Positions 4,966-10,800 of a stretch of DNA of 64,000 nt are shown piece by piece (the stretch's first letter is position 1; every line of letters starts with the position of its first letter). The stretch is from Pseudovirgaria hyperparasitica (taxonomy: Eukaryota). Both the position numbers and the translations under genes were made by a program. Below the pieces are notes generated by a model, which was not told the DNA's origin, did no database searches, and saw nothing but the letters and a program-made list of their open reading frames with translations. The stretch lies in NCBI GenBank assembly GCA_010093815.1, contig ML996569.1, one strand, 5' to 3'.

Positions 4966-5734
4966 CTATGATGCACCACCTTTTCTAAACGAGACCTTTT
5001 CTACCGCGACATTCTCCACCCCGTTGGCGTCCTTGCGTAGCTGGTATACGTATAATACTAACACGTCTCCTTGTACCTGCAGTCACGTCAGATGAGTGGC
5101 ATAGAGCAACGCCGTCATTAGTAAAGGCCAAACTCACATCCATCAACACGAAGCTTGGCGTAGGGTCTTCCTCTTCTGTCCACCAATTCGTAGTCATCGC
5201 ACCTGTTGCACTCCCGGGATTCACAAAGAACTTGCCCTCCATCTCGTATGCCTCAAACTTGTGTGTTCCGCCCCATAGCAGTATATCCACATCCATCTGC
5301 CGCGCTGCAATCAGCAAACTGTCGCCGTCTCCGGGCGGTATTATGGTGTGGCCATGTACGAAGCCAATGCGTAGCGATCCGTGCGTGACGACTTTCTGGA
5401 GCGCGAGATTGGGGGCGTCGACGTCAAAGTCGCCTTTGACAATCTGTAGGTCAGGAGCGAGACCGCGGAGGAACTCGTATGTGTCTTTGTCGGTTATGTT
5501 GCCCAGGCAGAGGATTTGACCTATTTTGCCGGGTGCGAGGAGCTTCTTGAACTGTAGGCAGCCGTGTGAGATGAGGAAGGTTCGTATGGACTCGTGCTTG
5601 GAAATCTGACCTTGGCGGGGATATCCTAGAGGGTGTCAGTACAATTGAAGGTAAAGTAGGCGCAATTGAGAACGTACTGACGCCCTGTCTGGTATAAACA
5701 GGTCACCTAGACATAGCACCAATCTGGCGGTCAT
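4966..5734 (-). CDS. VPS29: Retromer subunit Vps29 (metallophosphoesterase fold), 4 exons including a 15-nt micro-exon
   Basis: Spliced product [42 protein letters not shown]...GGTHKFEAYE...NPGSATGA...PSFVLMDVQGDVLVLYVYQL, matching Vps29 motifs. Confidence 0.95.
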
Positions 5735-6360
5735 GGTGCGGGCCTGGCCGGTGAGCTGGCACAGATGATATTGGAGAACAGTCGTGAGGCCTTTGAGATG
5801 ACGGTTGCCGTAGACCGGAGTAATTGAGGGTTTATCAGAAGAAAGAGTGGTAATGGGCGCTTGACTAGATGCTTATGATAGCTATCGTGAGGGTGAAGCT
5901 TGAGTAGAAGCAAGCTGCCATGCTGCCACTGCTGCGCCACAGATGTACCAGCCACAATGTGTGGCGTGCCGACAATACCGCGAGAGGGGACAATTCACTT
6001 AGTATCATTAATACTGCATTATGTCTCTATTACTGTTGCATTCTCCATTTTTCTCCAATTGTCCTCTCTCGCATCTAGAACGTCACCATGCGGACTCTGT
6101 CACTATCAATGCCGCCTCTCCGCAGCTTCGGTGGCCCTAGCAGTAAAAATATTAGCAGTAGAAATAACAGCATAGGAAATGGACTCGCAAACAGACTGCT
6201 GCACTCACCCTCACATCCCCTAGAAAAGCGATCTCGTCCGCCCGGGTTTAGCTGCGATCCCGGCTATTCCCACTACCCCTCCTCCTCCTCTTCGTGCCTT
6301 CCAATTGAAGCTGCTTTGCCCCTCCGACTGCGGCTACCCTTTGCGACGCTGCCCGCTCCG

Positions 6361-7737
6361 ATGCGCCTTCCTCCCCAACATCAACCGACGTCACGATTGT
6401 CGCTCATACACAATCATCTCAGCGCCGCTCCACCACTTTCTCACAGCAACAACACAAACAACAACAACAACAATCACATTCACTCTTCAGTACAGCCGCG
6501 CAGACTCCATTCCACCATGTCGTCACAGCCAGAGCACCCCACTCTCCTCATCCCGGGCCCAATCGAGTTCGACGATGAAGTCCTCCAGTCCATGAGTCAC
6601 TTTAGGTAAAAGCCAAACACTACATATTCTCTCCGTTGTCTCACCATATCGCTAACGACCCTTCCCAGCCAATCTCATGTCGGAGCCCCCTTTGTCGAGA
6701 CCTTCGGCGAGGCTCTCTCCATGCTCCGCAAGCTCTTCGTCACATCCGACCCCAAATCGCAGCCCTTCGTCATATCCGGCTCCGGCACGCTGGGCTGGGA
6801 CCAGGTCGCCGCGAACCTGACCGAAGAAGGCGACGAAGTCCTCGTGCTGCATACCGGCTACTTTGCCGACTCCTTCGCCGACTGCTTCGAGTGCTACGGC
6901 GCGAAAGCAACACAGCTGAAAGCCCCCATCGGCGACAGACCGCAGCTCGATGCCGTCGAGAAGGCCCTAAAGGAGAAGAAGTACAAGCTCCTCACCGTCA
7001 CACACGTCGACACTTCCACCGGCGTGCTCAGCGAGATCAAGGCCCTCGCAGCCCTCGTCCACAAGGTCTCCCCTGAAACTCTCGTCGTCGTCGACGGCGT
7101 GTGCAGCGTGGGAAGCGAAGAGCTCCGCTTCGACGAGTGGGGTCTTGACGTCGTCCTGACTGCCAGCCAGAAAGGCGTTGGTGTGCCCGCCGGGCTCAGC
7201 ATCCTCATGGCCTCTGCCCGCGCCATCGAAACCTTCAAGGCGCGCAAGACGCGCGTGCCTTCATACTTTGCCTCGTGGAAGAACTGGCTGCCCATCATGC
7301 AAAACTACGAGGCCAAGAAGCCGTCCTACTTCGCCACGCCCTCCCCTCAGCTGATCCACGCCCTGCACACCTCCCTCACGCAGATAACGTCCCGCCCAAT
7401 CGAGGACCGCTGGGCAGACCACAAGAAGGCCTCGCAGAAGGTCAAGCAGGCCATGTCCGACTTCGGCCTCAAGCAGCTGGCCTCCAAGCCCGAGAACCAG
7501 GCCAACGGCATGACGGCCATCTATCTGCCCGAGAAGATGGAGCCGTCGCAGGTCCTGCCCCCCTTGTTGAAGAAAGGTGTGATATTTGCCGGTGGTCTGC
7601 ACAAGGAGATTGCGACTAAATATATTCGCTTCGGGCACATGGGCGTCAGCGTCACTGATCCCAAGCGCAACGATCTAGACAAGGCGATTGACGCGTTGAA
7701 GCAGACTGTCACTGAGGCGGGCTACAAGGCGCCATAG
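6361..7737 (+). CDS. AGX1: Alanine--glyoxylate aminotransferase (class V PLP enzyme); conserved core starts at ATG 6517, in-frame upstream ATG at 6361; intron 6606-6668
   Basis: TLLIPGP N-terminal motif, SGSGTLGWD, THVDTSTG, VVDGVCS, PLP-lysine motif TASQKG, YFATP and IRFGHMG. Confidence 0.92.
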
Positions 7738-7863
7738 AGGATTCCAAAAAGTTGGATTGGCAGGTAGAATTTGCATCACTGTACATGTATGCTATGTTGG
7801 CATATACGCAAGACATATAAAGTCCACCATCTATAAAAGAAATGTAAAAACACAATTCTACTA

Positions 7864-10800
7864 CTACCCAATCAGTCCCAACTTTTCAAACGCCTTTACA
7901 ACAGGCGGCTCCCTCCTCACTCTACTCTCCTGCATCGAATCCCACAACACCCCATCTGCCCCCTGCGGCCTCTCACCATCAACCTCCTCCTCCCCAATCC
8001 CCCTTTTCCCATCCTCCTTCTCCGGCTCCCCTCCCCCCTCAACGCCCCAAACCTCAGGCACACACCCAACACAAGCATCCACCACTTCACCCATCATCCT
8101 CTCCACCGCCGCCGCCCTCTCCCTCATCCCCCTCCTCACAAGCCCCACCACCACCCTGCCCGCCTCCTCACTCGTCCGATTCACCCGCTCCACCAACCGG
8201 CCCACACTCCCAACCAGATACTCCTCCTCATACACACTGCCCTTCTTCCCACGCGCCCGTTTACGCTCCTCCCGCCGCCGGTTCTTGCTCGTTTTGCGCG
8301 TCGTCTGGGTGTTGAGCGTGCTGCCGCTGGCATTACTGCGCGCCGTGTAGCGGGTCAGGAACGTGCCTGCGGAGGTAGAGGTGGAGGTTGGGGCGAGGGA
8401 GACGTTATCTGGGATATCGTGTGCGGAGGCGTCGTTGGACGTGGGATCGCCGGTGTAGAAGGCGAGGGGGTCGGAAGTTTTCTTTGCGCGGAGTTCGCGG
8501 ATGCGGGGGATTTGGAGGGCGAGTTGGGTGCGGATGTCGGCGAGGAGTTCGGTGATGGAGGCGGAGGCGTCGATGAGGGCGGTGTCGATGATGGAGGGGA
8601 TGAGGGAGGGTTGGGCGTGGAGGGTGAGGAGGCGGAGGGCGTGGGCGAAGAGGGTGCCGCGGCAGAAGAGGCGGGCGGCGGCGGGGATGTCGGAGAGGTA
8701 GTCTGCGTGGATTGTGGCGGCGGCGGCGAAGTCTTTTGTTTCGATGAGGGAGTCGGAGAGGGAGGAGGCGAGGGCGTGGAGGGCGTCGGGGGTGTAGGGG
8801 ACGAGTTGGGCTGTGGTGAGGGCCTCGCGCCAGAGGTGGGCGAGGGCGTAGGATTGGGATGCGGCGGCGTGGTCTTGGAGGAAGTCGTATGCGAGGCCGG
8901 CGTCGCGGAAGCGGTCGTTGGCGTGGAGGTGGTCGGCGTAGAGACGCATGATTTCGTTGAGTTGGTCGGGGGTGTATTTGACGAGTTCGAGGGCTTGGGG
9001 GTAGAGCTCGTGTTTCTGGGCGTAGGACTTGAATTCGTCGAATGCGGGGATGGAGTAGAGGTGGCCGAGGGCTTTGGCACGGCGACCGAGTTTGTCGTCG
9101 ATTTCGAAGGAGCGGCGAAGGGGTGTGAGTTCTTGGAGGGATTGCATGTATGGGAGGTATTCTCGGGGGTCCTTTTGGGATTGCTGGGCGATGAGGAGCG
9201 TGAGCTCGAGGTCATATAAGCCCAGTGCATGATCGTAAAGATGGTTGACATCGGCGAGGAAGCAGATGTGCTCAGCAGCCGCTTCAGCTCGTTCGCTGTC
9301 GTTCTCTGTTGCTTTGGTAAGTATACATTACTGTCGTGACCACCTGATCGAGACTTACTACGAATGTCACCCACGACTGTGAGACCAGCTTCCAGGTCTG
9401 GTGGGCTCTTGCAGACGTGGGCTGTAATTATGTTCTGCATGTTGAGGTCTGGTGTCTCGCTGAGCTCTTGCAGAATGGCATCACAGATGCGATTGATTTT
9501 GCCACTAATTGCCGAGCCCCCTTTTGTACCAGGGAGACTGGTTCCATTGACGGCCGCGTACGTCTTAGAAGGATCAGATGATGTATCCTTGGACGTATTG
9601 CGGTACATGGAAACTGTAACGTCCTCTTCCCTTAGCTGTGAAACGAACAGATCGAGATAGCCGGCATTGTTGAGTTGCTTGATAAATGCGCCGACATTTT
9701 GGAGGAACTGATCCGGGGCGTGATCATAAAGTATGTTCATGTCAACTCTCTGGGCCCTACAGGCGAGAAAAGCCTCTTTGTAGTCGATCTTGTCAATGTT
9801 TCTGCGTATGCCATCCAGGACCATGGCTCTTGGAAACACAGTCTCTAGATTGCCTCGAGGCATCTGCAAGACAATACTGTAGGCCGTAGGCATGGCCGTG
9901 ACCAGGCGAGCACCACGCTCTATCCTTCGACATCGCTCATCCAGTTCAGGTTCATCTGCCGGTACTTCCATGTCTAGCACAGTTAGCTCCTTGGATCTCT
10001 GGACACCAGACGGGGACTTACCTCTTGATGAAAGATGGACAAACTTAAGCAAGTGCTGTGTGGTGGTGAAGATGAGGTGTGCGGACGTGACAAGAAAGGA
10101 GGTGGCGTTTCGAGCTATCAGCCTTTCATTCGCATACAAGTTTCCACCATTGGTGAGACCAAAGGAAACGCTGTCGGCTGATTCCGATCGAGCGATATGT
10201 CCAACATTTTCCACCTCTCCAAGCGTGTGTGTAACCCTCACCGATGACACGCTTGCGGGAATGTTCTCACTTGGCTGGCGCTCCATCTCACCGGTAAGGG
10301 TCTCATACTGACTGACCTTGCCGTCTGGCTCCGTGAGGCAGAGATGCTGAAGATCGGAGCTCAGACTCATACCGCTGATGTTTCCATCCAGGGGAAATGT
10401 ACCAGCAAGCTCGATATCCCCTGAACCTTCACCCCGCCAGCAAAGACTAGCGTTCGAGTAAAGGTCATCAGCAATCACGAAGAGCCAGTCATTGTCATTC
10501 AAGACTATCTGCCGGGGTATTGCGCTTTGCAACTTGATCTTACGGCGCGAAAGCAGTCTTGGCATACGCGGTCGCTTTGAGTCAAGATAGTCGTACGTGT
10601 AGACCTCATCATGCGTCAGAACAGCGACTTTTCTCCCCGACGGCGCCAAAGCGACATCTTTGATGCTGCCGTCTACGGCCACCTCGTGCAGTGACACCGG
10701 TGGCGGCACGTTTGCCAGACGCAACGGAGTGAGTTTCAGGTTTGCTAGATAGATTTAGATCCCGTTGCATAAGTGAGCGCGATCTGGACTTACCACCATC

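Follow-up and report, generated by a model that had tools for sequence, protein, structure and literature searches.

The location of alanine:glyoxylate aminotransferase (AGT) decides where glyoxylate is removed, and in mammals the choice of that location, presequence versus PTS1, has evolved repeatedly with diet. The AGT gene of the fungus Pseudovirgaria hyperparasitica raises the question of whether a similar choice can be built into the start codons of one gene. A preliminary description of this gene had proposed that an ATG at 6361 adds an N-terminal extension with a hidden peroxisomal signal of the PTS2 type, and that start choice produces peroxisomal and cytosolic, possibly mitochondrial, isoforms. 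We analyzed the gene, its transcripts and its relatives; it lies on the + strand of the window, by which we mean the whole 64,000-nt stretch of contig ML996569.1 (GCA_010093815.1) under study. Our preferred reading, to which we give a probability of roughly 0.7, is that leaky scanning down a ladder of start codons yields mitochondrial, peroxisomal and core forms of the enzyme. Statements on papers cited by PMC number refer to the parts of those papers that were available.

Anatomy of the locus

In protein searches exon 2 was 100% identical to a 521-aa protein of P. hyperparasitica (P0001) and 76-83% identical to many proteins named alanine-glyoxylate transaminase, the names being annotations, and the class V PLP aminotransferase domain PF00266 spans the full length in Pfam (E 3.8e-24). 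Judged by its sequence, the gene product is an alanine:glyoxylate aminotransferase of the AGX1/AGT1 type. The features of the locus are the following.

6025..6042, + strand: two spliced contigs (runs X1 and X2 of a single sample) have their 5' ends here, which gives an approximate limit for leader length
6076..6078, + strand: last upstream in-frame stop, after which the frame is open for 146 codons up to the core ATG
6088..6090, + strand: in-frame ATG with A at -3, lying 102 codons ahead of the PTS2; a long, perhaps mitochondrial, form could start here
6109..6111, + strand: in-frame ATG with T at -3, where the public 521-aa gene model (P0001) begins
6179..6223, + strand: out-of-frame uORF of 14 codons (G at -3 and at +4), located after the far-upstream ATGs and before the PTS2 start
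6304..6360, + strand: Arg/Leu-rich stretch corresponding to the distal start tier of relatives
ATT 6304, TTG 6316 (G at -3) and CTG 6349 (A at -3), + strand: near-cognate candidates, none of which passes the rule applied to relatives
6361..6363, + strand: proximal ATG, 11 codons ahead of the PTS2, with a weak context (C at both -3 and +4); gives 437 aa
6394..6420, + strand: PTS2-type nonapeptide RLSLIHNHL (family consensus RLSLISRHL)
6421..6516, + strand: low-complexity linker; an AAC repeat (Asn) occupies 6448-6474, and RRLHST (6499-6516) forms the end
6517..6605, + strand: coding exon 1, opening with the core ATG, whose context is strong (A at -3); the enzyme made from it has 385 aa
6606..6668, + strand: 63-nt GT..AG intron, skipped in the contigs
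6669..7737, + strand: coding exon 2, class V aminotransferase (PF00266), ending in YKAP without a canonical PTS1

The preliminary description read the letters correctly: ATG 6361 is in frame with ATG 6517, 52 codons ahead of it and with no intervening stop, positions 6394-6420 encode RLSLIHNHL, which matches RLx5HL, the extension terminates in RRLHST, and the C-terminus, YKAP, does not match the canonical PTS1 (S/A/C)(K/R/H)(L/M). Its choice of 6361 as the upstream start needs qualification, because this codon is present in frame but is preceded by two other in-frame ATGs, at 6088 and 6109, in a frame that is open back to 6076. The form begun at ATG 6088 has 4 Arg/Lys and no Asp/Glu among its first 30 residues, and the uORF at 6179 would be expected to intercept ribosomes on transcripts with a long leader. 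CTG 6349 is in frame and located where relatives carry their CUG; its -3 position is A, its +4 position C. The length of the AAC repeat is a multiple of three, so that the frame is kept through the Asn run. An AGT-like paralogue in the same genome (L082, G000:C7:1406426-1407472), of 389 aa and 56% identical, has no extension, no PTS2-like motif and no canonical PTS1, and just 28 open codons upstream.

The two spliced contigs, which begin at 6025 and 6042, skip the intron and thus behave as RNA assemblies; they cover the motif and all candidate starts, and as contigs they cannot map start sites. The stretch 5907-6007 is uncovered by them and was not counted as evidence. Pyrimidine-rich tracts, which are typical just before fungal transcription start sites, are present at 6020-6079 and 6260-6289. 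The AGT contigs continue into a convergent minus-strand neighbour (window 7737-8200) that, from its translation, we take to be ELP1-like. A divergent spliced gene (window 5200-5854), presumably VPS29-like, ends near 5854, with about 170 nt between both 5' ends.

Conservation of the nonapeptide

RLx5HL has 3 matches in the 127,996 six-frame residues of the window, with about 0.001 expected in the extension, and residue shuffles of the extension contained RLx5HL in 0.6% of cases and the canonical consensus in 2.5%. A lone RLx5HL match from a genome scan proves little; it is conservation that, as far as sequence can tell, makes the signal real. We used 80 metagenome loci (L001-L080), which avoids annotation bias, and located the core Met in 79 of them; 65 were left after removal of exact duplicates, 53 at <95% core identity and 44 with at least 300 nt upstream. 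The upstream frame was open for at least 80 codons in all 44 loci versus 9 of 88 control frames, an in-frame R[LVIQ]x5H[LFI] was present in 41 of the 44 dereplicated fungal loci versus 0/88, and the canonical PTS2 pattern in 36 versus 1/88. In the thiolase control, a PTS2-like nonapeptide was found upstream of the match in two of the five scanned thiolase loci (L084 and L089).

Across the relatives' loci all six Arg codons are used at position 1 and five Leu codons at position 2, the distance from motif to core ranges from about 40 to 76 codons, and the flanks are variable. Because synonymous codons change freely while flanks and spacing vary, selection appears to act on the peptide and not on the RNA. 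Where the middle of the nonapeptide varies, the key positions Arg1, Leu2, hydrophobic 5, His8 and Leu9 stay within the consensus, with positions 1 and 8 partly fixed by the search pattern itself. The preliminary description had asked whether in orthologues the nonapeptide is kept while the surroundings diverge, and this is how the 41 loci behave. We have little doubt that the nonapeptide is selected as protein within the family.

In the other three loci (L024, L029 and L054) the nonapeptide has decayed and the upstream frame is still open. Altogether the decayed copies amounted to six loci in three lineages (L024/L045/L047, L029/L069 and L054), and no canonical PTS1 had been gained upon PTS2 loss at the C-termini of these six. 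L025 and L036, sisters of decayed copies, keep the motif; the core-protein tree is poorly resolved at depth and gives rough placement only. We also observed a second motif 8-15 residues after the PTS2, (N/S/T)-T-P-(F/Y), usually followed by S-(T/I)-E-R (for example in L005, L060 and L071). It occurs in 37 of the 41 loci and in 95 of the 134 annotated extensions and is missing from the window gene, several Xylariales and Magnaporthales; candidate roles are a co-receptor contact, a protease site or a phosphosite.

Three homologue searches listed 351 distinct homologues. A PTS2-like nonapeptide was found in 47/57, 62/66 and 26/27 core-anchored proteins with an annotated extension of at least 40 aa, counts that come from related sequences and favour gene models in which the extension was annotated by chance. 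In two proteins of the last set the first match is an unrelated upstream match. Named carriers are Bipolaris and Zymoseptoria in the Dothideomycetes, Neurospora, Podospora and Pyricularia in the Sordariomycetes, Diplocarpon and Rhynchosporium in the Leotiomycetes, and Exophiala and Cyphellophora in the Chaetothyriales. None of the 351 homologues listed has a canonical PTS1 at its C-terminus, which extends what had been noted for YKAP, and 67 of 120 proteins of the second, Sordariomycete-rich set end in QKA.

Two distant homologues, P0154 and P0199 (44% and 57% identity), also have N-terminal extensions that contain a PTS2-like nonapeptide, which hints at wider or independent use. The distant named members Komagataella, Balamuthia and Paraphysoderma have presequence-like extensions without PTS2; the search against 50% representatives contained few close fungi. 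Presequence-like extensions in which the PTS2 is absent were also seen in P0345, P0374, P0377, P0069 and P0011 (including Berkeleyomyces, Trichoderma and Acrodontium), which may be lineage losses or extra paralogues.

The nonapeptide of P. hyperparasitica itself agrees with (R/K)(L/V/I)x5(H/Q)(L/A), the consensus from PMC7214817 and PMC3798809, and by the criteria of PMC4585086 it has the large hydrophobic residue at the centre (X3; Ile at position 5) and no Pro. His6 and Asn7 replace the Ser-Arg of the family, and position 6, Ser in 38 of 41 relatives, thereby falls outside the refined consensus L/S/G/A of PMC4585086, which is a frequency rule on the commonest variants and does not concern the five key positions. 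With that one frequency rule excepted, the extended protein would by its sequence belong among the PTS2 cargoes. If ATG 6361 is used the nonapeptide starts at residue 12, and the contigs cover it. The genome contains an intronless PEX7 of 357 aa (L083:1411-2481, G000:C4; E 1.1e-91 to 3w15_A). A co-folding model of this Pex7 and residues 1-40 of the extension scored 0.02, both chains having been folded without alignments and with the co-receptor absent, and was counted neither for nor against. Taken with the conservation, the sequence match and the presence of PEX7 make it highly probable to us that the nonapeptide works as a PTS2.

Two tiers of candidate start codons and the peptide between them

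Relatives have two tiers of candidate starts above the core AUG, one just before the PTS2 and one that would add an Arg-rich, acid-free peptide. In many of them there is no AUG near the motif and Leu-Ala is found at two upstream places, the Leu being a CTG in near-perfect initiation context; L029 and L069 retain both of these Leu-Ala positions despite the decay of their motif. Among 1722 in-frame codons at -45 to -4 from the motif, purine-N-N-CTG-G was counted 44 times; the other frames had it 2 and 1 times, the linker 0 times in 1936 codons and the early core twice in 1025 codons. A Leu that precedes Ala is coded by CTG at 46 of 59 positions upstream versus 14 of 57 in the core. A at -3 is found in 37 of the 46 upstream CTG-Ala sites and in 35 of 41 core AUGs, and for the upstream AUGs the figures are 3/15 (proximal) and 0/6 (distal). 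For near-cognate starts, A at -3 and G at +4 have been reported to matter most and to be conserved across Pezizomycotina (PMC5487733). Out-of-frame ATGs are depleted six-fold, to 0.88 per kb versus 5.66 per kb further up.

We applied a fixed start rule, in which proximal means within 25 codons of the motif. A proximal start was present in 40 of 41 loci (25 CUG/GUG and 15 AUG) and a distal start in 32 (26 CUG/GUG and 6 AUG). Weak upstream AUGs, strong CUGs and few out-of-frame ATGs give the pattern that is expected for a two-step leak-through to a strong final AUG. An in-frame CUG with A or G at -3, G at +4 and no stop before the main AUG is thus conserved in the family; the window gene itself has no rule-passing distal CUG, and its proximal start is an AUG. 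P. hyperparasitica fits the proximal tier well: its nonapeptide is intact and preceded at 11 codons by a weak AUG, CTG 6349 occupies the position of the relatives' CUG, and ATG 6361 is most likely the start of the predicted peroxisomal form. In seven relatives (L001, L038, L042, L049, L059, L061 and the Chaetothyriales-like L071) an in-frame AUG lies far upstream, at a distance of 65-105 codons from the PTS2, a range that includes the position of ATG 6088.

Of the peptides that run from the distal to the proximal start, 31 of 32 are acid-free; they contain 15% Arg and have a median hydrophobic moment of 0.60. Acid-free controls of equal length numbered 1/32 in the linker, 4/32 at the core N-terminus and 14/32 just upstream, and the median moments of the three control sets were 0.38, 0.19 and 0.39. 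The candidate peptides of the window gene are acid-free but weaker, with moments of 0.45 (from 6088) and 0.25 (from 6316). The linkers of relatives contain Arg-x-(Phe/Leu/Tyr)-(Ser/Gly)-(Thr/Ser), which we take to resemble a processing-peptidase site, in 13/41 loci (shuffled mean 0.4) and 66/134 proteins (mean 1.7), the pattern having been tuned after inspection of the data. RRLHST, which had been likened to a mitochondrial processing site, does not match this pattern, and the likeness is supported only indirectly, by the enrichment of the similar Arg motif in relatives. Mitochondrial presequences are described as Arg-rich and acid-poor in make-up (PMC4585086). On this evidence a mitochondrial tier is likely to exist in the family, and for a mitochondrial form in P. 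hyperparasitica we put the chances as even.

Proposed ladder, alternatives and meaning

The observations that any explanation has to accommodate are the anatomy of the sequence, its conservation, the pattern of start contexts, the transcript coverage and the presence of PEX7. From these we infer initiation at the upstream codons, three locations of the enzyme, the proportions among them and a metabolic role. In this reading targeting signals are nested in a coding 5' extension, and the start codons along it become stronger toward the enzyme proper. The strong core AUG 6517 would capture most ribosomes and yield the 385-aa enzyme without a signal, which would stay in the cytosol or enter peroxisomes by dimerising with an imported form. 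A smaller share of ribosomes would start just before the nonapeptide, here at the weak AUG 6361 and perhaps at CUG 6349, and in most relatives at a CUG of optimal context; the PTS2 of this form would be exposed near the N-terminus and lead to import by Pex7, and peroxisomal glyoxylate would be transaminated to glycine. A further minority would start higher up, at a CUG or weak AUG in relatives and here possibly at AUG 6088 or 6109 on long transcripts or at a near-cognate codon at 6304-6316. This would add the Arg-rich, acid-free presequence, which would override the PTS2 and take the enzyme to mitochondria.

The isoform proposal of the preliminary description thereby survives in its main part: that an upstream start reveals the predicted PTS2 and a downstream start omits it is well supported by conservation, start contexts, transcript coverage, the presence of PEX7 and the absence of a canonical PTS1. 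The mitochondrial signal would most likely come from a separate start above the PTS2 start and not from the 6361 form, and the upstream AUG, present here at 6361, is a CUG or GUG in most relatives examined. The analogy with mammalian AGT that had been drawn is a loose one, since in mammals a mitochondrial signal is set against a C-terminal PTS1, mostly by a switch of transcription start site (TSS) and with no PTS2 (PMC12960970).

That precedent (PMC12960970) also speaks for a different explanation, in which the forms arise mainly through alternative transcription start sites, with the 6088 form made from long transcripts (beginning at about 6025-6042) and the other two, 6361 and 6517, from shorter transcripts. 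Long transcripts, which meet ATG 6088 with its A at -3 and then the uORF at 6179, should rarely reach 6361 or 6517, and the two pyrimidine-rich tracts fit such an arrangement. However, the conserved CUGs and weak AUGs of relatives and the six-fold depletion of out-of-frame ATGs are needed for leak-through only, and we consider it unlikely that start-site choice is the main source of the forms, even though it can coexist with leaky scanning. P. hyperparasitica departs from its family in His6, in the loss of the second linker motif, in having no rule-passing distal CUG, and in its strong AUG 6088 followed by uORF 6179. With this AUG and uORF upstream on long transcripts and no distal CUG, one simple mRNA cannot explain all forms here, and a mixture of start sites plus leaky scanning is likely in this species. 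The same departures could mean that the system is real in the family and has decayed here, the altered nonapeptide (His6/Asn7 for Ser-Arg) and Asn-run linker importing inefficiently, and the decayed L024/L045/L047, L029/L069 and L054 provide a precedent. Yet all four defining residues and the hydrophobic centre are intact between flanks that cannot be aligned, the frame is open with a weak AUG 11 codons upstream, and other lineages without the second motif still retain the nonapeptide; we hold decay to be very improbable.

PTS2 signals and presequences are both amphipathic helices that resemble each other (PMC4585086), and the nonapeptide might accordingly have no peroxisomal role and be a conserved amphipathic segment within a long mitochondrial presequence, or a binding motif of some other kind, in a system of mitochondrial and cytosolic forms alone. 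The processing-site-like Arg motif enriched in the linker (13/41 loci, 66/134 proteins) and the second conserved motif after the nonapeptide would suit this, as would the lack of an AGT-named entry in the Histoplasma peroxisome list (PMC13343957). Presequences have no sequence consensus (PMC4585086), whereas the PTS2 key positions hold here, and a separate dedicated start 5-25 codons before the motif would be purposeless, which leaves this explanation quite unlikely. As to Histoplasma, the name alanine/glyoxylate aminotransferase was not found in seven peroxisome proteome supplements of PMC13343957, Table S5 being covered in part, and enrichment over cytosol would miss a minor isoform. G217B_3587 ("aminotransferase, putative"), which is peroxisome-enriched with no PTS listed, was considered as support and dropped; it is enriched in neither the pex5 nor the pex7 mutant, and a KAPA synthase is named among the enriched proteins (PMC13343957). 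Finally, the extended protein of the 521-aa model could be the main product and the core AUG a relic, with no choice of isoforms. The contigs do extend upstream of ATG 6088, itself in good context, but 35/41 loci keep the core Met with A at -3, the upstream starts are near-cognate or weak, and many relatives have no upstream AUG near the motif; we give this possibility hardly any weight.

Each single ingredient of the leaky-scanning ladder has a precedent: cryptic PTS2, start-dependent AGT targeting, a presequence before a PTS2, and interchange of weak AUG and near-cognate starts. In Ustilago maydis, 6-phosphogluconate dehydrogenase (Pgd1) has a cryptic PTS2 in its 5' leader, read from the non-AUG start AGG AUU so that about 2% of the protein is extended (PMC7214817). 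As in AGT, this PTS2 is in frame above the main AUG and kept in relatives, and the main form of Pgd1 is cytosolic and its minor form comes from an inefficient start. Pgd1 is a different enzyme from another phylum with one upstream tier, whereas AGT has two tiers, interchange of CUG and AUG, and a presequence-like peptide before the PTS2. By this analogy AGT probably works like Pgd1 with a mitochondrial tier added, as a three-tier ladder. Mammalian AGT (AGXT) belongs to the homologous enzyme family and two in-frame starts set its mitochondrial versus peroxisomal location, but it uses a C-terminal PTS1, two TSSs and AUG starts (PMC12960970), whereas the putative fungal N-terminal PTS2 needs an upstream start and is nested behind the presequence. 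Nested N-terminal signals are also found in the 70-kDa heat shock protein of watermelon, in which a plastid presequence precedes a PTS2 and two in-frame starts are used, the shorter form exposing the PTS2 (Wimmer 1997, per PMC3798809); there the target is the plastid, both starts are AUG and no third, signal-less form is described in the available part of that source. Fungal dual-localised proteins (PMC7049704) and Neurospora cpc-1 (PMC5487733) similarly combine a leaky upstream start with a strong downstream AUG, with interchange of weak AUG and near-cognate starts between species. Those cases are two-way (mitochondria/cytosol) or regulatory, unlike AGT, and the available parts of both papers have no mention of peroxisomes or glyoxylate aminotransferase. 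We found no description of PTS2 or CUG starts in fungal AGT in the literature searched, PMC9549241, PMC9309667 and PMC3566003 (as available) included; most subscription papers were outside the search and an earlier mention is possible.

The closest case is AGT1 of the rice blast fungus Magnaporthe (Pyricularia) oryzae, MGG_02525, a close homologue that is reported to be peroxisomal and needed for appressorium function (PMC3338719). There the protein was handled as ~386 aa and its location credited to a putative PTS1, QKA, whereas the window protein ends in YKAP. A C-terminal fragment ending in QKA sufficed for peroxisomal puncta, full-length fusions gave no signal, and a fusion of the 0.52-kb promoter to GFP was cytoplasmic (PMC3338719). 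The Ustilago leader-GFP fusion was also cytoplasmic until the AUG of GFP was removed (PMC7214817), so that the rice blast result is compatible with a minor form. The 437-aa rice blast model EHA56723.1 has RLSQLSYHL in a 52-aa extension. The gene was not among the 65 predicted PTS2 proteins in the supplement of PMC3237427 as searched, and pattern-predicted PTS2 proteins of this fungus are reported in the cytosol or mitochondria in the same paper.

We lean slightly toward the broader view that in filamentous ascomycetes a single AGT mRNA places presequence, PTS2 and bare enzyme in series through a three-step ladder, that the stringency of initiation sets how glyoxylate transamination is split and could shift it, that gene models miss the ladder, and that the peroxisomal location in rice blast may rest on an overlooked PTS2. 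If this is true, the location of rice blast AGT1 would have a testable explanation other than the non-canonical PTS1 put forward for it, namely the PTS2, and corrections would follow for many gene models whose start was set at the core AUG or at some arbitrary AUG above it; the public 521-aa model already contains the motif, unrecognised. A conserved metabolic enzyme would join the short list of fungal PTS2 cargoes, and the locus would offer a compact natural reporter for three-way start selection. Moulds would have gained a flexibility like that of mammals by another route, with a PTS2 behind a presequence opened by leaky CUG and AUG starts.
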